The position numbers were made by a program, and so were the translations under genes. The notes below the pieces were generated by a model, which saw nothing but the letters and a program-made list of their open reading frames with translations, did no database searches and had not been told where the DNA came from. Source: an uncultured Aurantimonas sp. (GTDB lineage: Bacteria; Pseudomonadota; Alphaproteobacteria; Rhizobiales; Rhizobiaceae). Taken from it: a stretch of DNA of 64,000 nucleotides. Below, piece by piece: positions 5,552 to 52,816 of this stretch (the first letter of the stretch is position 1; each line of letters opens with the position of its first letter). Where the stretch lies: assembly GCA_947488615.1 (NCBI GenBank), contig CANKZU010000011.1, positions 6,471-70,470 of the forward strand. The letters are read 5' to 3'.

Positions 5552-7333
5552 ATGTCGGTCACCAACAGCCCGGGGAACACGGGGGGCGAATTCGGCCCCT
5601 GGAACCCCGGGCTGAGTTCGACGATACCCCAGCGTCTTTTGCCGCTGTCTACCATGTTCCGCCCGGAAAATGTCGAGACCGGCTTTAGCGAGGCTCGCGA
5701 ACTTGCCGACTTCAGCGGGCTCGACCCCAAGGACACGATTGCCTTTCGCGCCGAACGCTTGATCGTCCACGAACTGCTGATCCGGGTAACGGCGGACCTA
5801 TCGGTACCGGATGGGCCGGAATACGAGGAACTGGGCATCAACATGCGCGGAATGACCGCGCGGATCTACGACGCGCATGTCAGGCCGCGGCTCGGCGATT
5901 TGAAGACAGAGCACGAGCGGCTTGCCATTCGGGCTCGCGAATTCATCACCGCCGAATTGCAGCGACTGGATGCGCGGGACGCCTCGCATAGGCCGGCGTC
6001 GCCCGCGAAAAAAGGGTTGCTGGAACGGATTCTGGGAAGCAGACCAAAGACGACGCCGCCGCCCAACCCCTCACCCAACCAAAACACCGCGCTCGAAGCC
6101 GCCACCGTCCGCTGGGCAGGGATGCAAGATCCGTTCGAGGCGGCCTGCGCCAATGCCCTTGCCACGGTCACCAGCGCCGTTGTCCGCACCCATGGCCGAC
6201 TGCCTTTCGACAAGACGATGATCATCGACCTGGCGGCCAATTTTTTCGTCAACGACTATGGCAGCGCGCGACTGGGCTCCGCGCTGGATCCGATTATCGA
6301 AATGGCGTCGAAGGCCGAAGGCTATCGGTATCTTCCGACCCAGACGAAGCCGTTCGTCATGAACGTGAAGGGGGCCTCGGCCGCCGGAAAGAGCACGATC
6401 AGACCACATCAACGCGCCCTGGCCAAGAAACTCGGTGTGCCGTGGGAGGACTTCGCCCTCGTCAGTCCGGACTACTGGCGCAAACACCTCCTCGACTACG
6501 GTTCGCTGGGCGCTGATTATAAATATGGCGCCATGCTCACTGGTCACGAATTGGAGATCATCGACCGAAAGCTCGACCGTTACATGGCCGAGAAAGCCGA
6601 CCGGGGAACGATGCCGCATCTTCTCATCGACCGGTTCCGCTTCGACAGTTTCAGAACCGGCGACAATCAGGATCGCGGCAGCAATCTGCTGACCCGGTTC
6701 GGCCACACCGTCTTCATGTTCTTTATGGTCACCCCGCCGCCGCTCACCGTGGAACGGGCGTGGAAACGCGGGCTGACGACTGGACGGTACAAGGCCGTCG
6801 ACGACCTTCTCCACCACAATATCGAGGCCTATACCGGCATGCCGGCGCTGTTCTTTTCCTGGGCGTTGTCGGACAAGAAGGTTCACTACGAATTCCTCGA
6901 CAACGATGTGCCGAAAGGCGAGCGCCCTCGAACGATAGCCAGCGGCTGGAACCGCCGGATGAACGTCTATGATGTCGAAGGCCTGCTGAACATCGAGCGG
7001 TTCAAGAAAGTAGATGTTCGCGCGTCGGGCCCCGGCGAGGTCTACCTGGAGGGTGCCGATATCCCCGCGGAAAACCTGGAATTCCTGCGGCAATGTAGCG
7101 AGCGCCTCGATGAGGTGCGGTTCGTCAATCCCAAGACCGGCGACCGATACGGTCTCATCGGGACGGATAGCGGGGCGTGGTGGGACCGCAGCTTGTCATC
7201 ATGTCGGGATGAAATCTCTGACCTTCTGGAAGGGGTCGTTGCGGACGCCGAGGCGCATCCTCGAAGCGATACCGCAACCGGCGGCTCGGATCTTGAGGAC
7301 GAAATGAACTGCATCATCGGTCGGCTGCATTAG
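5552..7333 (+). CDS. Uncharacterised P-loop NTPase/kinase-like protein (zeta-toxin-like C-terminal half)
   Basis: 593 aa, starting 4 nt after the tctA stop. Walker A GASAAGKS (6371-6394) followed by LVSPDYWRK and LLIDRFRFD, as in zeta-toxin/kinase-fold P-loop proteins. The N-terminal half is unrecognised. Confidence 0.7.
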   Translation: MSVTNSPGNTGGEFGPWNPGLSSTIPQRLLPLSTMFRPENVETGFSEARELADFSGLDPKDTIAFRAERLIVHELLIRVTADLSVPDGPEYEELGINMRGMTARIYDAHVRPRLGDLKTEHERLAIRAREFITAELQRLDARDASHRPASPAKKGLLERILGSRPKTTPPPNPSPNQNTALEAATVRWAGMQDPFEAACANALATVTSAVVRTHGRLPFDKTMIIDLAANFFVNDYGSARLGSALDPIIEMASKAEGYRYLPTQTKPFVMNVKGASAAGKSTIRPHQRALAKKLGVPWEDFALVSPDYWRKHLLDYGSLGADYKYGAMLTGHELEIIDRKLDRYMAEKADRGTMPHLLIDRFRFDSFRTGDNQDRGSNLLTRFGHTVFMFFMVTPPPLTVERAWKRGLTTGRYKAVDDLLHHNIEAYTGMPALFFSWALSDKKVHYEFLDNDVPKGERPRTIASGWNRRMNVYDVEGLLNIERFKKVDVRASGPGEVYLEGADIPAENLEFLRQCSERLDEVRFVNPKTGDRYGLIGTDSGAWWDRSLSSCRDEISDLLEGVVADAEAHPRSDTATGGSDLEDEMNCIIGRLH

Positions 7334-47127: not shown

Positions 47128-47174
47128 GCGCTTCAATGGTCTCGAGAGTAATCCCGCGTGCTCAAGGGACGACG

Positions 47175-48359
47175 ATGCGAATCAATGTGCTGAAATCTTT
47201 GCGACTCAATATGGCTCCCACCGTTGCGGTGGTCGGCCTGATAGGGTTTGCCGCTGGATGTAGCTCCGACGTCGCGCGTTTCGATGACGGCTTCTACACC
47301 GGTGCCGTCCCGCAGCCGCCGTCCCGCACGGCGGCTGTCAGCCAGCCCTATCCGGGTGATGTCGATCGGATGAATACGGCCGGTATCAACCGCTCATCGG
47401 GATATGCGCGGTCGTCCGGTCGCGCACCCACTGCTTCCGTGCAGCGCAACACGCTGCCGCCTCCGCCGCCGCCCAGCTATCAGTCCTCCAATCCCGCCTC
47501 CGTGGCGCCCTCTGCGTCTCAGCCGGCGGCACGAGGCGCGCCAGCATCGACACTGGGAGACCAGGCGGCGCGAATTGCCAAGCCCGCGCCACGCCAGTCC
47601 GAGAGCGGCGCGAAAGTAACGGTCGAAAGCGGCGACACGCTGTTGTCGATCGCCCGGCGAACCGGAGCGTCGGTTTCCGACATCAAGCGTGCGAACGGTC
47701 TCGACGACAGTACCATCCGCATTGGTCAGACGCTCACCGTCCCCGGCGGAAAAGTCGCTGCGACGAAGGTCGCCAGCGTGGAAGCCAAAGCGGCAGCGCC
47801 AACAAAACAGGCCGCCAAGCCGCGTACTGAGAGCGCCGCGCCAGAGCCCTACACGCCGCCGGCAACAGCCGAAAAGGCTGGCCGCCCGTCTACCGAGACC
47901 GCCTCGAGGCAATCGCGGCCAACGACCACCGTCAGCAAGGAAGTCGAGGCCAAGGTCGCGGCCGTCGCGCCCGACGCTACCGGCATCAGCCAGTTTCGTT
48001 GGCCGGTGCAGGGACGGGTGATCAGTCGTTTCGGCGAAAAGGTGGGATCGCGGCGCAACGATGGCCTCAACATCTCGGTGCCGCGCGGAACCCCGGTCAA
48101 GGCGGCCGAGAATGGGGTGGTGATCTATGCCGGCGACGGCCTCAAGGAATTCGGTAACACCGTTCTCGTGAAGCACGACGACGGACTCGTTACCGTCTAT
48201 GGCCATGCCGATTCGATTTCCGTCGAACGTGGCGCGAAGGTGCGCCGTGGCCAGGAAGTCGCGAAGTCCGGCATGAGCGGTGAAACGGAGGTTCCGGTCC
48301 TGCATTTCGAAGTGCGCAAGAACTCCGCGCCAGTCGATCCGACGAAGTTTTTGCAATAA
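47175..48359 (+). CDS. nlpD: LysM + M23 peptidase-domain lipoprotein (NlpD/DipM-like)
   Basis: Lipobox AAGC, LysM VESGDTLLSIARR, FRWPVQGRVI, NDGLNI (His replaced by Asn, as in non-catalytic NlpD-type activators), YGHA and LHFEVR. Confidence 0.9.
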   Translation: MRINVLKSLRLNMAPTVAVVGLIGFAAGCSSDVARFDDGFYTGAVPQPPSRTAAVSQPYPGDVDRMNTAGINRSSGYARSSGRAPTASVQRNTLPPPPPPSYQSSNPASVAPSASQPAARGAPASTLGDQAARIAKPAPRQSESGAKVTVESGDTLLSIARRTGASVSDIKRANGLDDSTIRIGQTLTVPGGKVAATKVASVEAKAAAPTKQAAKPRTESAAPEPYTPPATAEKAGRPSTETASRQSRPTTTVSKEVEAKVAAVAPDATGISQFRWPVQGRVISRFGEKVGSRRNDGLNISVPRGTPVKAAENGVVIYAGDGLKEFGNTVLVKHDDGLVTVYGHADSISVERGAKVRRGQEVAKSGMSGETEVPVLHFEVRKNSAPVDPTKFLQ

Positions 48360-48382
48360 GCGCCGGCCTCCAGGCGTTTGAC

Positions 48383-48420
48383 GGCCTGGCCCTGCGTCTC
48401 GGCGCGGGGCCAGGCCTTTT
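48383..48420 (+). terminator. Intrinsic terminator after nlpD
   Basis: GGCCTGGCCCTGCG-TCTCGG-CGCGGGGCCAGGCC-TTTT. Confidence 0.75.
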
Positions 48421-48716
48421 CCGTTTCCTATCGCCTGGGCCCTTGCGCGGCCAAGGACCGGTGCGCTCAAAACATCCCGGTCATAGCGGTATCGTGGGCG
48501 GGAAATCGCGGCCGTGCTGGGGCGTCGATGCGGATTGGCTATGAAGTCATGCTGGAGGGCCAGGCCCAACAAGCCCGATTGCGCGCAGACAGGACGCTCG
48601 GTTTGCCTTTCGCCGTCCCGAATCATCTCGGCTGTCGATCGTGAACATGATCGATTCCAGTCTGTGAGCGCGGAATACGGGCGCGAACTCGACTCTCGCT
48701 TTTTCCCCGTTCCGCT

Positions 48717-50012
48717 TCAGCTCTTGGCGGAGACGACCTTGTTGCGGCCCGAGCGCTTTGCCTCGTAGAGGGCGGCGTCAGCCTCCGCGATCAATTCATC
48801 AGCGCTCTTGCCGGCTTCAGCGCCGGTTACGCCGGCGCTGAAGGTGACGTGAAACGGTCCGTCCGGACCGCGCATCGGGATGTCCGCGAAATGCCCGCGA
48901 ATTCTGTTCATCACGGCATTCGAGGCTTCGATCGGCGTATCCAGCAGGATCACGCCAAACTCCTCGCCTCCATAGCGCGCGACGACGTCGATATGGCGAA
49001 GCCCTCCGACCAGCGAGTGAGATAACGTCTGGATAACGCGATCGCCAACCTGATGGCCTTTCGTGTCGTTGACTTGCTTGAAATGATCGATGTCGAGCAG
49101 ACACACGCTGAACCGCGAACCGGTGCGCCGACAGCGCTCCAACTCCACCGCGACGCGATCCTTGAATCGCGCATGGTTCAAGAGCCCGGTGAGACTGTCG
49201 CGCTCGCCGATCTGGCGCAGGGCGACAGCCCGTTCAGCGCGCATCCGCACGAGCGATGCAAGGAGCTCGAAGCCGACGGACTTGTTGATGAAGTCGTCAC
49301 CGCCGAGTTTGCGGGCCTGGCGTTGCCGCTCAACATCCTGCTCGGCGGACAGGAAGATGATCGGAAGCGACAGGTTCCGGCGCGATTGGCGTATGATCTG
49401 CGCGACCTCCATCCCGTCCGCGACGGGCATATGCATGTCGAGAAGTATGAGATCTGGCGTGTTGCTGCTGATCTCTTCCAGCACGCGGCCCGGGTCGGTC
49501 AAGATCCGAGCGCTCATATCTGCCGCCTCCAAGGCGAAGGCGAAAGCTTCGGCCGCGATCTCGTCGTCGTCGACGATCAGGATGGAAAGCGGCTCGGCCT
49601 CGCCAGTATCGTAGTCGTCGAGCCATGCGCCGAGTTCGACGGTGTCGAGAGGCGTCGACAAGATCGCTTCGACGCCGGCGCGTGCCGCCGCCAGCTTGAA
49701 TTCGAAGCTGGTCTCGTCAGCGAGCAGGATGACACGGTGGCGGGCTGATTGCTCGCGCGCCAGCGTCAAGTCGGGATCGACCTGCGTGTTGATGAGAACC
49801 GCGACGCACGCGTCTTCCGTCTGCTCACCTCGTCCGTCGACCGGTCGATAGCCCAAGCCGGAGATCATCGAGGCGCATTGCTCGATACGGGCATCCTCCT
49901 CAAAGAACCTGACGCTTTTTCGAATGACCGCCCCCTCGGGGGACATTCCGCCACAGTCCTGGCCCTGCTTGTCGAGTCGCGCCACGTCGATGGGTTTAAT
50001 ATCCAAGAACAT
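48717..50012 (-). CDS. Diguanylate cyclase: pseudo-REC + REC + GGDEF (GGEEF)
   Basis: SD GAGGT before ATG 50012. Second REC intact (IVDDD, LLDMHMP, FLS, INK). DSLTGLLN, DIDHFKQVNDTKGH, I-site RHID, active site YGGEEF, YEAKRSGRN. Confidence 0.92.
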   Translation of the reverse strand: MFLDIKPIDVARLDKQGQDCGGMSPEGAVIRKSVRFFEEDARIEQCASMISGLGYRPVDGRGEQTEDACVAVLINTQVDPDLTLAREQSARHRVILLADETSFEFKLAAARAGVEAILSTPLDTVELGAWLDDYDTGEAEPLSILIVDDDEIAAEAFAFALEAADMSARILTDPGRVLEEISSNTPDLILLDMHMPVADGMEVAQIIRQSRRNLSLPIIFLSAEQDVERQRQARKLGGDDFINKSVGFELLASLVRMRAERAVALRQIGERDSLTGLLNHARFKDRVAVELERCRRTGSRFSVCLLDIDHFKQVNDTKGHQVGDRVIQTLSHSLVGGLRHIDVVARYGGEEFGVILLDTPIEASNAVMNRIRGHFADIPMRGPDGPFHVTFSAGVTGAEAGKSADELIAEADAALYEAKRSGRNKVVSAKS

Positions 50013-50024
50013 CAGCCGAGCACC

Positions 50025-50414
50025 TCAAGAACCGTCGGATCCCGGGCCATGGTCCGGCCCTTCGGGTGCGTGGCATCCGGCTTCATCGCCAAGAATCACG
50101 CGTCTTATTTCGGGGACGATTGTTTCAGTCAGGCCCCTAAGATCCGCATCGCTGCGATGCGAAAGAACAAAATGTTCCAGCTCGGCCGCCTGCGGCGTCA
50201 GCGCACTGAAGTCGAATATGCCAGCTCTGCCCGCCAAGCGATGCGCGATCTGCCCGATCGCTTGGCGCACTTCGTCCTTGTCTCCGGGCTCGGCCAGGCG
50301 ATCGGCCAGGCTTTCCAGTTCGGACGTCTGAAGGAGCGTATCCTCGATGAACCGCACCTTCAGCGCAGCCATTCTGGCTTCCATCGATGTGACCTGACCA
50401 GTCGATGCGTTCAT
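50025..50414 (-). CDS. Stand-alone Hpt (histidine phosphotransfer) domain protein
   Basis: About 129 aa, helical, Hpt-like motif IAHRLAGRAGIFDFSALTPQAAELE. ATGA overlap with the upstream gene. Confidence 0.75.
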   Translation of the reverse strand: MNASTGQVTSMEARMAALKVRFIEDTLLQTSELESLADRLAEPGDKDEVRQAIGQIAHRLAGRAGIFDFSALTPQAAELEHFVLSHRSDADLRGLTETIVPEIRRVILGDEAGCHAPEGPDHGPGSDGS

Positions 50415-51673
50415 TCCGAACCCTCCAGGAATTGGACGCCGATATCGTTTCCGCTCTGCCATTTCGTTTCGACGGCGCGCTTGCTGCCCGATCCGACGAC
50501 GAGGAGGTCGAATCTGTCGGGGGCAGCGAAATAAGTGTCGACCCGCAATAGGGCGCCCGAAGCGGAGATATTGCGAACGGTGCAGTCGATGACCGCGTCG
50601 CCTTTGCGCAGAAACATCGTTCCCCGTTTGAAAACCCGCTGTCGGCGTTCGGCGCGTCGCTCGTCTCGTTCCTTGATGAGCGAGGGCTCTGTGCGATTGC
50701 GCTCGGGCGATCCGGATGCATCCAGCTGGCTGGAGGCCTCCACCGACGATGCCGTCTCGGCGAATGCGGTACCAAATGGTTCTTCATTCGCTGCGGCTTT
50801 ATCGAGCGCCTGCTGCGCCGCCTGGATGAGGGTGCCAGGATCCGTGCCATTAGCGGGAGACATCGCCGCGCCAATTGCCGGAATGAACTGGACGACGCTT
50901 CGATCCAGATTCACTTGGTGGGTGAGTTCTCGTACCAATTGATGGCAGCGCTCGGAAATCGATCGCGCATCAACGTCCCGATCGACGAGATAAAGAAATC
51001 CATCATCGCCGAACGATCCGCAGAGGTCGCCGGCGCTCGTGACCAGATTGAGCCGTTTAGCGAAGTCGCGCAGCAGCCGATCACCGGCAACATGCCCCAG
51101 GCTGGCCCGAATTTTCGCCAGGTTGCGAAGCTTGATGAGAAGCACGCCGAACGTAGAAGGCGGGCTTCTACTGGTGAATTCGCCCAAGCGTTCCTGCATG
51201 AATTGCGCACTGTAGAGGCCGGTGACGTTGTCGAACTGCAGGCTCTTTTTGATGCGCTCCGCTTCGATGGTTTCGGACTGCGCCTTTTTACGTGTGCCGA
51301 CCGCCGCGCGGATCGCCGTCACCAATTCGTGCTTGTTCAGGTCGCGTTTCGAAACATAGTCGCTGAATCCGCTGCGAAACGCCTTGACCGCCGTTCGCTC
51401 GCTTCCTCCACCTGTCAACATCACGATCGGCGGGGCATTGGGGATTGTCGCTCTTATCGTCTCCGCGATATTCAGCCCGTTCTCGGCGCCAAGATTATAG
51501 TCGACAACGACACAATCGATCGGGTCCGCCATCAGGGCACGCAACAATTGCGGGCCATCGGACGCCTGGGTGACTTCCATATCTCCGTCATGACCCAACA
51601 TGGCGGAAATATACTCCAGGAAAATCGGATCGTCGTCCAAAACGGCTAGCCGTATCGAACTTGCGCTTTCCAT
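50411..51673 (-). CDS. REC + degenerate GGDEF + PilZ domain protein
   Basis: REC intact (VLDDD, VVDYNLG, MLT, VSK). GGDEF scaffold (DNVTGLYS, LGHVAGDRLL) with FGDDG in place of GGDEF. PilZ motifs RAERR and NISASG. Confidence 0.85.
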   Translation of the reverse strand: MESASSIRLAVLDDDPIFLEYISAMLGHDGDMEVTQASDGPQLLRALMADPIDCVVVDYNLGAENGLNIAETIRATIPNAPPIVMLTGGGSERTAVKAFRSGFSDYVSKRDLNKHELVTAIRAAVGTRKKAQSETIEAERIKKSLQFDNVTGLYSAQFMQERLGEFTSRSPPSTFGVLLIKLRNLAKIRASLGHVAGDRLLRDFAKRLNLVTSAGDLCGSFGDDGFLYLVDRDVDARSISERCHQLVRELTHQVNLDRSVVQFIPAIGAAMSPANGTDPGTLIQAAQQALDKAAANEEPFGTAFAETASSVEASSQLDASGSPERNRTEPSLIKERDERRAERRQRVFKRGTMFLRKGDAVIDCTVRNISASGALLRVDTYFAAPDRFDLLVVGSGSKRAVETKWQSGNDIGVQFLEGSE

Positions 51674-51798
51674 TGGTCAGCAATCCTTAAATAAAGTAAG
51701 CCGGACGAATTGGCTTTGACTTCATTATGCGGGTGGAGACCTTTTGTAGGGGTTAACGACAACCACCTTGGTTCTGACAGTTTGGTGAACTCCAGCGC

Positions 51799-52686
51799 TC
51801 ACGCGCCATCGAGGCCGGCCAGGGGCCGCCCCAGCCGTCCGGCCAGATCCTGCACGAACTGGTAAGCAACGCGCCCCGATCGACTGCCGCGGGTTGTCGC
51901 CCATTCGAGTGCCTCGCGCCGAACCATTCCGGGATCGGCCGCAATGTCATACGCGGCGAGATAACCGTCGATCATCGCCAGATACTCGTCCTGATTGCAG
52001 CGATGGAAGCCGAGCCAGAGGCCGAATCGATCCGATAGCGAGACCTTCTCCTCGACGGCTTCACCGGGATTGATTGCGGTCGAACGCTCGTTTTCGATCA
52101 TGTCGCGGGGTAGAAGATGGCGGCGGTTCGATGTCGCATAGAACAGCACATTGGGTGGCCGACCCTCCACACCGCCCTCCAGCGCCGCTTTCAGCGATTT
52201 ATAGGCGCTATCACCCATGTCGAAGGAAAGATCGTCGCAATAGAGAAGAAACGGGCAGGGTACTTCCCGCACCAGACTCATCAGCAGCGGCAGATGATCG
52301 ATATCCTCACGGTGAATCTCGATAAGTTTGAGACGGGGTGTTCCGGCGGGAAGGGCCGCGTTCACCGCGGCATGTGCGGCCTTGACCAGGGACGACTTGC
52401 CCATGCCGCGCGCGCCCCACAAAAGCGCGTTGTTGGCGGGAAGCCCGCGGGCGAAGCGCTCGGTGTTTTCCAGGAGAATGTCGCGCGAGCCGTCGATGCC
52501 CCTGAGCAGTTCGATGGGGACGCGGTTCACGATTCGCACCGGCGCGAGGGCGGCTGGCGGCTCGAAGACGAAGCAATCGGCGGCGGTAAAATCCGGCGCG
52601 GGAGGTGGTGGCGGCGCAAGCCGTTCGAGACCTTGCGCGATCCGTTCCATGGTCTGCAGCAAGCGGGTGAACTCAGCGGAATCCAT
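51799..52686 (-). CDS. DUF815-type AAA+ ATP-binding protein
   Basis: NNALLWGARGMGKSSLVK, YCDDLSF, YATSNRRHLLPR and EEKVSLSDRFGLWLGF. Confidence 0.88.
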   Translation of the reverse strand: MDSAEFTRLLQTMERIAQGLERLAPPPPPAPDFTAADCFVFEPPAALAPVRIVNRVPIELLRGIDGSRDILLENTERFARGLPANNALLWGARGMGKSSLVKAAHAAVNAALPAGTPRLKLIEIHREDIDHLPLLMSLVREVPCPFLLYCDDLSFDMGDSAYKSLKAALEGGVEGRPPNVLFYATSNRRHLLPRDMIENERSTAINPGEAVEEKVSLSDRFGLWLGFHRCNQDEYLAMIDGYLAAYDIAADPGMVRREALEWATTRGSRSGRVAYQFVQDLAGRLGRPLAGLDGA

Positions 52687-52816
52687 AGGAAAATCTCGTC
52701 TCTCTCCCGGCTGTCGGCCAGGTCTGGTGCCGGCTTGTTGCATTCAGGGCGACCGATCGTATATTCCGCGCTGATCGTAAAGGCCCTGTGCCGTCCCATT
52801 TCCTGAGAGGTTCCTG

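Follow-up and report, generated by a model that had tools for sequence, protein, structure and literature searches.

A three-gene phosphorelay and cyclic di-GMP cassette of Aurantimonas and its predicted partner kinases at a separate locus

The 64,000-nucleotide stretch of DNA analysed here (the window; contig CANKZU010000011.1 of assembly GCA_947488615.1, forward strand, positions 6,471 to 70,470, from an uncultured Aurantimonas sp.) contains a cassette of three close-packed minus-strand genes, 51673-48717, in the order RGP, Hpt and DGC. RGP is a response regulator composed of a receiver (REC), a degenerate GGDEF and a PilZ domain, Hpt is a stand-alone histidine phosphotransfer protein, and DGC is a predicted diguanylate cyclase with the layout pseudoREC-REC-GGEEF. 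The cassette probably forms the output side of a multistep His-Asp-His-Asp phosphorelay, the genes of which are divided between two loci; its predicted route would start from hybrid histidine kinases encoded on another contig of the same genome. The strongest evidence that the cassette and the kinase genes would form one system, gained or lost together, is that two separate indels co-vary among close relatives.

An earlier reading of the window from its letters alone (the sequence-only reading) had proposed a self-contained, kinase-independent design, while allowing for the circuit to be fed by an unlinked kinase. The latter option is now favoured, since kinases on another contig co-vary with the cassette; the former is contradicted by most other genomes, in which the triad of genes has a MASE1-CHASE-PAS hybrid kinase and a single-domain REC beside it.

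The kinase locus and the orthologous triads

The sequence-only reading had described nlpD and the DUF815 gene, which flank the cassette, as typical neighbours, and they were indeed found as convergent genes in 16 relatives from several genera, separated by 44-183 bp. The gap between them measures 115-393 bp across the nearest cassette-less relatives G002 and G008 (393 bp in G002) and extends to 3.4 kb only in the window genome (G000) and in Aurantimonas sp. A3-2-R12 (G005), its nearest whole-genome match. The cassette is a 3.3-kb insertion into this otherwise tight junction. Contigs of the A. coralicida type, the proteins of which are 85% identical, hold the cassette at the same nlpD-DUF815 site.

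Three genes stand in tandem on contig C1 of the window genome (~489.7-496.8 kb) and encode the hybrid kinases HKA (1307 aa) and HKB (821 aa) and a single-domain receiver, REC1 (123 aa). The name HKA is used for kinases of about 1300 aa with the architecture MASE1-CHASE-PAS-HisKA-HATPase-REC, and HKB for those with 5TMR-LYT-PAS-HisKA-HATPase-REC-REC. The two C1 proteins have the same architectures as the kinases linked to triads elsewhere, containing HisKA, HATPase and REC domains and an intact SHELRTP H-box, and no match to the Hpt domain PF01627 was found in either of them. A search with HKA gave full-length orthologues, 54-56% identical over residues 21-1293, in exactly the 4 RGP-carrying genomes of the genus and in 0 of the other 9.

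The second indel is placed between a DEAD-box helicase gene and a periplasmic binding-protein gene, which are 185-220 bp apart in G002 and G008 and 7.5 kb apart in G000 and G005; in the latter two genomes the gap is occupied by REC1-HKB-HKA. G002 and G008, which are without the cassette, are thus also without the kinase insertion, and the genes on either side share 87-98% identity with their counterparts in the window genome.

Across 401 genomes sampled evenly from the order, RGP was found in 7 and an HKA-type match at E<=1e-100 in 13, and all 7 RGP-positive genomes were among the 13 HKA-positive ones (hypergeometric P ~5e-12, the genomes not being phylogenetically independent). The HKA-type match of genome G175 spans the kinase core only. 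A mirror-tree comparison, in which the pairwise identity matrices of RGP, DGC and HKA correlated with r=0.97, is weak, the correlation being driven by two close pairs.

The architecture search found the RGP-Hpt-DGC triad co-occurring in at least eight independent lineages, which upholds the earlier proposal that the three genes are one functional unit. Orthologous triads are present in two other genomes of the genus (L016 and L017, 45-47% identity), in Devosia (L026), Mariluticola (L027), Mangrovibrevibacter (L028) and Fulvimarina (L029), on metagenome or run-assembly contigs (L032-L034) and in genome G175 (L041). Hybrid kinases adjoin the triad in six lineages other than that of the window. 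At L016, L017 and L032 the triad is flanked by a divergent REC1, HKA and HKB; in Devosia, Mariluticola and L033 the HKA gene comes directly after DGC and REC1 is also present, the HKA start overlapping the DGC stop in Mariluticola; in Mangrovibrevibacter HKB, REC1 and HKA adjoin the triad. Only L034 and L041, among the triads found, are without an adjacent kinase. The sequence-only reading had named, as an outcome that would count against it, orthologous cassettes that always include a cognate kinase which was simply lost here. This applies in part, the cassettes elsewhere being mostly kinase-linked, but the kinase was not lost in the window genome and resides there on another contig.

Four genomes of another family (L037-L040) have retained these components in a different arrangement, with a REC-EAL gene and Hpt transcribed in one direction and DGC, RGP, a PAS hybrid kinase and REC1, in that order, in the other. 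A fusion of Hpt to the kinase was considered for this family and rejected, since Hpt has a gene of its own, which follows REC-EAL on the opposite strand.

Three further observations concern relatives of the cassette or of its kinases. At L046 (2388-5901) a distant RGP relative adjoins a SiaA/B/C/D-like module (SpoIIE phosphatase, GGDEF, SiaC and DUF6272), and it is flanked by a dCache hybrid kinase and a dCache-PAS-GGDEF gene. On the Fulvimarina manganoxydans-type contig (L029, 125-7524) the triad is situated immediately downstream of a bcsB-GH8-(646 aa)-BcsN-PilZ-like cellulose cluster (bcsB, bcsZ and bcsN genes), the sole hint at an output; cellulose synthesis was discarded as the output, being suggested by the Fulvimarina locus alone, and no bcs genes were found in the window genome. 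On contig C8 of the window genome (G000:C8:52726-57428) three consecutive genes encode a FecR-like protein, a CHASE2-adenylate/guanylate cyclase and a 5TMR-LYT-PAS hybrid kinase of 679 aa.

Domains and conserved residues of the cassette proteins

The genes and domains of the cassette are listed below with the evidence for each, AF2 denoting AlphaFold2 models.

50411..51673, minus strand: RGP, response regulator with REC, predicted dead GGDEF and PilZ domains, 420 aa (Pfam, AF2, family alignment)
51335..51655, minus strand: RGP receiver domain, aa 7-113, acceptor Asp58 (Pfam, alignment, AF2)
50768..51238, minus strand: RGP degenerate GGDEF domain, aa 146-302 (PleD alignment, family alignment)
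50417..50659, minus strand: RGP PilZ domain, aa 339-419, with RRAERR (RxxxR) and NISASG (D/NxSxxG) (Pfam, alignment, AF2)
50025..50414, minus strand: Hpt, stand-alone phosphotransfer protein, 129 aa, conserved His in AHRLAG (Pfam, orthologues)
48717..50012, minus strand: DGC, predicted pseudoREC-REC-GGEEF diguanylate cyclase, 431 aa, RHID I-site (Pfam, alignment, AF2/Foldseek)
49605..49916, minus strand: DGC N-terminal pseudo-receiver, aa 33-136 (AF2 secondary structure, Foldseek)
49248..49583, minus strand: DGC phosphorylatable receiver (predicted), aa 144-255 (Pfam, orthologue alignment)
48738..49202, minus strand: DGC GGDEF domain, predicted catalytic, aa 271-425, with GGEEF and RxxD (Pfam, orthologue alignment)

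Scans for open reading frames (ORFs) and Pfam domains confirmed the three minus-strand ORFs and the domains that had been read from the letters. The translational coupling proposed at the same time was also found: an ATGA overlap joins the RGP stop with the Hpt start at 50414-50411, and a GAGG overlaps the Hpt stop about 10 nt upstream of the DGC ATG. The 4-nt RGP/Hpt overlap is present in at least seven orthologous loci, and this recurrence indicates that the coupling is conserved and not due to chance. No sigma-70-like promoter was seen upstream of RGP in a promoter scan and no terminator after DGC in a terminator scan, and an Rfam scan of 48200-52000 gave no riboswitch or small RNA. The sequence-only reading had remarked that the cassette itself includes no histidine kinase or phosphodiesterase, and neither a histidine kinase nor an EAL domain is present anywhere in the 64-kb window.

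RGP matched the Pfam families Response_reg (1.3e-19), GGDEF (3.9e-23) and PilZ (1.6e-6), the last (PF07238) with 28.8 bits against a cut-off of 22.5. The family alignment consisted of the window RGP and 19 further members (20 in total), and D13, D14, D58 and K109 of the receiver do not vary in it. The position of GG[DE]EF is degenerate in all 20 members and reads GDDGF in the window. Alignment to PleD showed the replacement of the first metal-binding Asp by Lys and of the I-site RxxD by SAGD (Arg to Ser), and the I-site is not conserved within the family alignment. Both GG[DE]EF and the metal-binding Asp, the marks of an active cyclase, are therefore missing by sequence, and the domain is the lowest-scoring among the 25 GGDEF domains of the genome. 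In the PilZ domain R340 and R344 of RxxxR and S370 and G373 of D/NxSxxG are invariant across the same alignment. These are the two motifs of PilZ receptors, and the AF2 model shows a PilZ beta-barrel.

This model of RGP, with a predicted local distance difference test (pLDDT) score of 83, comprises a REC domain (7-113), a stalk helix (114-145), the GGDEF domain (146-302), a disordered linker and the PilZ barrel (345-415), and its REC-stalk-GGDEF part resembles the structures of WspR, PleD and DgcR. On account of the residue checks on the receiver, GGDEF and PilZ domains and of the model, RGP is predicted to be phosphorylatable, to have no catalytic activity in its GGDEF domain and to be able to bind cyclic di-GMP (c-di-GMP) by its PilZ domain. 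A profile search over 1.84 billion representatives gave about 75 full-length RGP clusters at 50% identity, which were mostly metagenomic.

Hpt matched PF01627 with 31.2 bits (cut-off 24.6), and the His of its AHxLAG motif is kept in 10/10 orthologues. The genome holds three Hpt domains only, which belong to CheA, to another stand-alone Hpt on contig C3 and to the cassette Hpt. The second stand-alone Hpt (G000:C3:52720-53110, ~128 aa, AHALKGTARNIG) adjoins ferredoxin and ferredoxin-reductase-like genes.

DGC matched Response_reg (1.2e-23) and GGDEF (1.7e-41) behind about 140 aa without Pfam assignment. The true receiver has DDD, D192, S222 and K244, and its acidic pocket is conserved in 10/10 orthologues, as are GGEEF, DIDHFK and RHID (the RxxD I-site); judged by these motifs the GGDEF domain is a competent cyclase, of which the activity is predicted. 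The acceptor Asp of both cassette receivers, which the sequence-only reading had taken to be phosphorylatable, and the Hpt His are conserved family-wide.

The N-terminal domain of DGC has no Pfam match and lacks the acidic pocket, and it is modelled by AF2 as a REC-like (beta-alpha)5 fold. A search with its profile against PDB sequences gave only sub-threshold CheY matches (E 0.5-0.9), and the call of a pseudo-receiver fold consequently rests on the AF2 model and Foldseek. The full DGC model was aligned by Foldseek over ~450 columns to PleD (2V0N/1W25, E 6e-31), which confirms the pseudoREC-REC-GGEEF layout and, with it, the N-terminal pseudoREC of the earlier reading. The AF2 model shows the three-domain fold of the PleD family (REC, REC-like and GGDEF). 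DGC scores only 184 bits against the PleD equivalog NF007135, the cut-off of which is 474, and its order of receivers is not that of PleD, as the true receiver is second and the pseudo-receiver first. The NCBIfam equivalog cut-off was reached by none of the five proteins scored.

The proposed relay, its alternatives and related systems

A hybrid kinase with a receiver of its own and without an Hpt domain is the usual partner of a stand-alone Hpt. The components of a multistep phosphorelay are all present by sequence, namely hybrid kinases of this kind, an Hpt with its His and receivers with an acceptor Asp. Gene and domain content, motif conservation, purifying selection, six-gene linkage elsewhere and co-variation of the loci were observed; we infer the direction of phosphotransfer, the activation of DGC and the binding of c-di-GMP by RGP. 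On sensing their membrane or periplasmic and PAS-borne cues, HKA and HKB would undergo autophosphorylation, and the phosphoryl group would move first to the receiver domains of the kinases themselves and then to the cassette Hpt. The phosphorylated Hpt would charge the receivers of DGC and RGP in parallel, and REC1 is probably a competing acceptor or a phosphate sink. Once phosphorylated, DGC would dimerise and thereby become active in c-di-GMP synthesis, in the manner of PleD, WspR and DgcR, and the enzyme would be product-inhibited through its RxxD I-site. RGP would read both the relay (Asp58~P) and, via PilZ, the c-di-GMP of DGC, and could serve as a local dual-input effector or feedback element. 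As the hybrid kinases are the likely donors, it is more likely that Hpt~P serves the two cassette receivers side by side than that these receivers stand at either end of a REC-Hpt-REC chain.

A more speculative extension, which we put forward tentatively and with more doubt than conviction, is that RGP might be an AND-gate or feedback element of a type new to the literature, responding only when it is both phosphorylated and loaded with c-di-GMP. It might form inactive heterodimers with DGC via the REC-stalk-GGDEF part, or gate the phosphate flow through Hpt, and the module would in this way signal locally, with a pulse-like or adaptive response. The triad, on this view, would be a portable c-di-GMP output cartridge that also works in trans once detached from its kinases.

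Several observations weigh against the reading of the cassette as the output half of a relay that starts from the C1 kinases. HKA-REC1 was found without the triad in three sampled genomes, with other Hpt-bearing partners nearby, and the kinase is therefore not exclusive to the triad output; HKA-REC1 looks like a sensory core, and the triad like one of its output cartridges. The triads of G175/L041 and L034 are without a detectable HKA orthologue. The orthology of HKB is ambiguous, the HKB of G012 being 62% identical to a third 5TMR-LYT kinase on C8 and 42% to the C1 copy. The stand-alone Hpt on C3 is a possible alternative phosphodonor for the hybrid kinases. Finally, the damaged cassettes of two close relatives, described below, may mean that the split arrangement is under relaxed constraint in some strains.

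Three other explanations were weighed. An autonomous kinase-less circuit, charged by acetyl-phosphate or by any unlinked kinase, with Hpt shuttling between the cassette receivers, would agree with a 64-kb window without a kinase and with the L034 and L041/G175 triads, where neither a neighbouring hybrid kinase nor, genome-wide, a full-length HKA is present. We nevertheless consider it improbable, as most orthologous triads are contiguous with a hybrid kinase and the window genome retains orthologous kinases that co-vary with the cassette; to our knowledge, moreover, Hpt proteins are not charged directly by acetyl-phosphate. A linear relay of the Spo0F/Spo0B type would lead from a kinase to the RGP receiver (or REC1), then to Hpt and to the DGC receiver, with RGP as an upstream c-di-GMP-gated step exerting feedback on the phosphate flow. 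The associated kinases, however, are hybrid, with their own D1 receiver and without Hpt, and in the L037-L040 family (f32) Hpt is co-transcribed with REC-EAL and divergent from DGC-RGP, so that the RGP-Hpt order is not essential. The linear route accordingly appears unlikely to us, even though the RGP-Hpt-DGC order and the RGP/Hpt translational coupling are conserved, a PilZ domain on the upstream receiver would make a simple product-feedback valve, and at L046 a hybrid kinase immediately precedes the distant RGP relative and no Hpt gene was called.

The remaining explanation, a horizontally acquired cassette that is now orphaned and decaying and has no physiological role, is hardly credible when the three ORFs of the window are intact with every key residue, their ratios of nonsynonymous to synonymous substitution rates (dN/dS) are 0.14-0.25 with dS like that of flanking core genes, and the partner kinase locus is also intact. 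It could call upon the absence of the insertion from the closest relatives, the frame-shift in the PilZ linker of strain A3-2-R12 and the RGP-DGC fusion of strain C2-6-R+9, as well as on the module identity of 47-57% within the genus, which is as low as between families and indicates horizontal transfer.

Full-text literature searches gave no description of the triad or of a REC-GGDEF-PilZ protein; the sequence-only reading had not recognised the arrangement as a described system either. The module is real and undescribed, and no curated family was found for it. A stand-alone Hpt, a pseudoREC-REC-GGEEF cyclase and a REC-deadGGDEF-PilZ receptor do not occur together in any of its nearest analogues, PleD/DivK/PopA, WspR/DgcR, PixA, Cle, HptB-HsbD and Hk1-Rrp1-PlzA.

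The Caulobacter PleC/DivJ-DivK-PleD system is similar in having a REC-REC-GGDEF cyclase with one true and one pseudo receiver, GGEEF and RxxD (PleD gave the top Foldseek/PDB matches of DGC), and a single-domain REC under the same kinases. It differs in that the pseudo-receiver of DGC is N-terminal, so that the true/pseudo order is reversed, in the low equivalog score given above, and in the source of phosphate, which would here come from hybrid kinases via a stand-alone Hpt and in the PleD system comes directly. Caulobacter PopA is, like RGP, a paralogous REC and dead-GGDEF protein, and it acts as a c-di-GMP receptor, as is predicted for RGP, but it binds the ligand by an I-site, which is lost in RGP (SAGD), whereas RGP would bind it by the fused PilZ domain. 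WspR and DgcR share the topology of REC, long helix and GGDEF with the last two domains of DGC and the first two of RGP, and their phosphorylation-driven dimerisation is the expected mechanism of DGC activation; they differ from DGC, which has a pseudo-receiver in addition, and from RGP, in which the active site is dead and a PilZ domain is attached, and no Wsp-type chemosensory input is present here.

Myxococcus xanthus PixA (PMC8316039) likewise unites a phosphorylatable receiver and a c-di-GMP-binding PilZ domain in one protein and is encoded without a neighbouring kinase. Its domain order is reversed (PilZ-REC), with no GGDEF between and no Hpt or cyclase in the operon. The Cle proteins of Caulobacter (PMC5677366) are receiver-domain proteins that bind c-di-GMP and so integrate both signals. 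They bind it by a short arginine-rich C-terminal extension, have the flagellar motor as target and contain no dead GGDEF. In the HptB-HsbR/HsbD module of Pseudomonas aeruginosa (PMC5085249), as proposed here, hybrid kinases without Hpt feed a stand-alone Hpt linked to c-di-GMP production. That module encodes no PilZ receptor. We take the acceptor of HptB to be a REC-PP2C protein and HsbD not to be a receiver-containing cyclase. The Hk1-Rrp1-PlzA system of Borrelia presumably has no stand-alone Hpt gene, and its PlzA is presumably unlinked and without a receiver domain. It resembles the present system in that a hybrid kinase feeds a REC-GGDEF cyclase and a dedicated PilZ receptor is present (PMC4013479).

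Networks of c-di-GMP include dozens of cyclases per genome (25 GGDEF domains here), and the specificity of local signalling is an open question. In the present case one operon encodes a cyclase predicted to be activated by phosphorylation, its putative phosphodonor and a receptor that would read both phosphorylation and c-di-GMP. The family is small and well conserved, and it could serve as a compact, genetically tractable case in which to test whether two-component and second-messenger signalling are joined by feedback or coincidence detection. The co-varying split over two loci also illustrates how the kinases of an orphan cassette can be identified by comparing genomes.

Insertion edges, composition and history of the cassette

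The flanking genes and the edges of the inserted DNA are as follows.

47136..48359, plus strand: nlpD (LysM-M23 peptidase) (Pfam)
48383..48416, plus strand: intrinsic terminator hairpin of nlpD, one edge of the inserted DNA (kept in cassette-less relatives)
51697..51762, no strand assigned: segment of ~66 nt between the DUF815 stop and the RGP start, the other insertion edge (common to cassette-less G002)
51799..52743, minus strand: DUF815 AAA ATPase (Pfam)

The 66-nt segment 51697..51762 probably belongs to the DUF815 3' region, because G002, which is without the cassette, has it too. Relics of a cassette were looked for in G002 and rejected, as nothing is present in the 393-bp gap but the nlpD terminator, a dispersed repeat of 60 nt and the segment next to DUF815; scars therefore cannot distinguish insertion from deletion. 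Between the nlpD terminator and the DGC stop (window 48417-48716) there are about 300 bp of non-coding DNA that are ~75% conserved with G005 and absent from cassette-less relatives, and in which no Rfam match or terminator was detected.

The G+C content at third codon positions (GC3) is 0.675 in RGP, 0.64 in Hpt and 0.77 in DGC, compared with 0.78-0.81 in most neighbours, 0.72 in nlpD, 0.695 in DUF815 and a genome median of ~0.77. The abundance of A/T-ending codons noted from the letters alone thus holds for Hpt and RGP, which are low against their neighbours, but not for DGC, which is typical and stands at the median; DUF815 is itself low, and RGP lies at about the 26th percentile of the ORFs of the genome. 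A foreign origin deduced from composition was consequently rejected as weakly founded, the values of RGP and Hpt being low locally but ordinary genome-wide.

In comparison with the A. coralicida-type locus L030 the dN/dS values were 0.17 for RGP, 0.25 for Hpt and 0.14 for DGC, and the dS of the cassette (0.24-0.43) was similar to that of flanking core genes (0.27-0.30). The low dN/dS and the core-like dS indicate vertical inheritance of the cassette, under purifying selection, from the divergence of these strains onwards. Between two Aurantimonas lineages the module proteins are 47-57% identical, about the same as to Devosiaceae, while core genes are 70-82% identical. As the identity of the module within the genus is as low as between families, the comparison points to independent horizontal acquisitions by the two lineages.

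The cassette is damaged in two close relatives. In A3-2-R12 (L001, 8960-9070) two indels lie 83 nt apart in the RGP orthologue, an insertion (+1) within a C-run and, downstream of it, a deletion (-1). Together they frame-shift the PilZ linker, create an in-frame TGA and destroy the RxxxR motif; they are either a real lesion or homopolymer sequencing errors. In C2-6-R+9 (L045, 6001-7524) a single chimeric gene of 507 aa stands between DUF815 and nlpD, a deletion of ~1.4 kb having fused RGP(1-249) to DGC(~172-431) with loss of PilZ, Hpt and the pseudo-receiver.

Two minor observations concern the neighbourhood of the insertion site. The dispersed repeat of ~60 nt in the G002 gap (L035, ~1700-1770) has copies in the window genome on contigs C1 (two copies), C2, C3 and C29, and it may be a small mobile or repetitive extragenic palindrome (REP)-like element. 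The DUF815 ORF has 314 aa from its first ATG, compared with 295 aa called in orthologues, and its true start is probably at ~52686.

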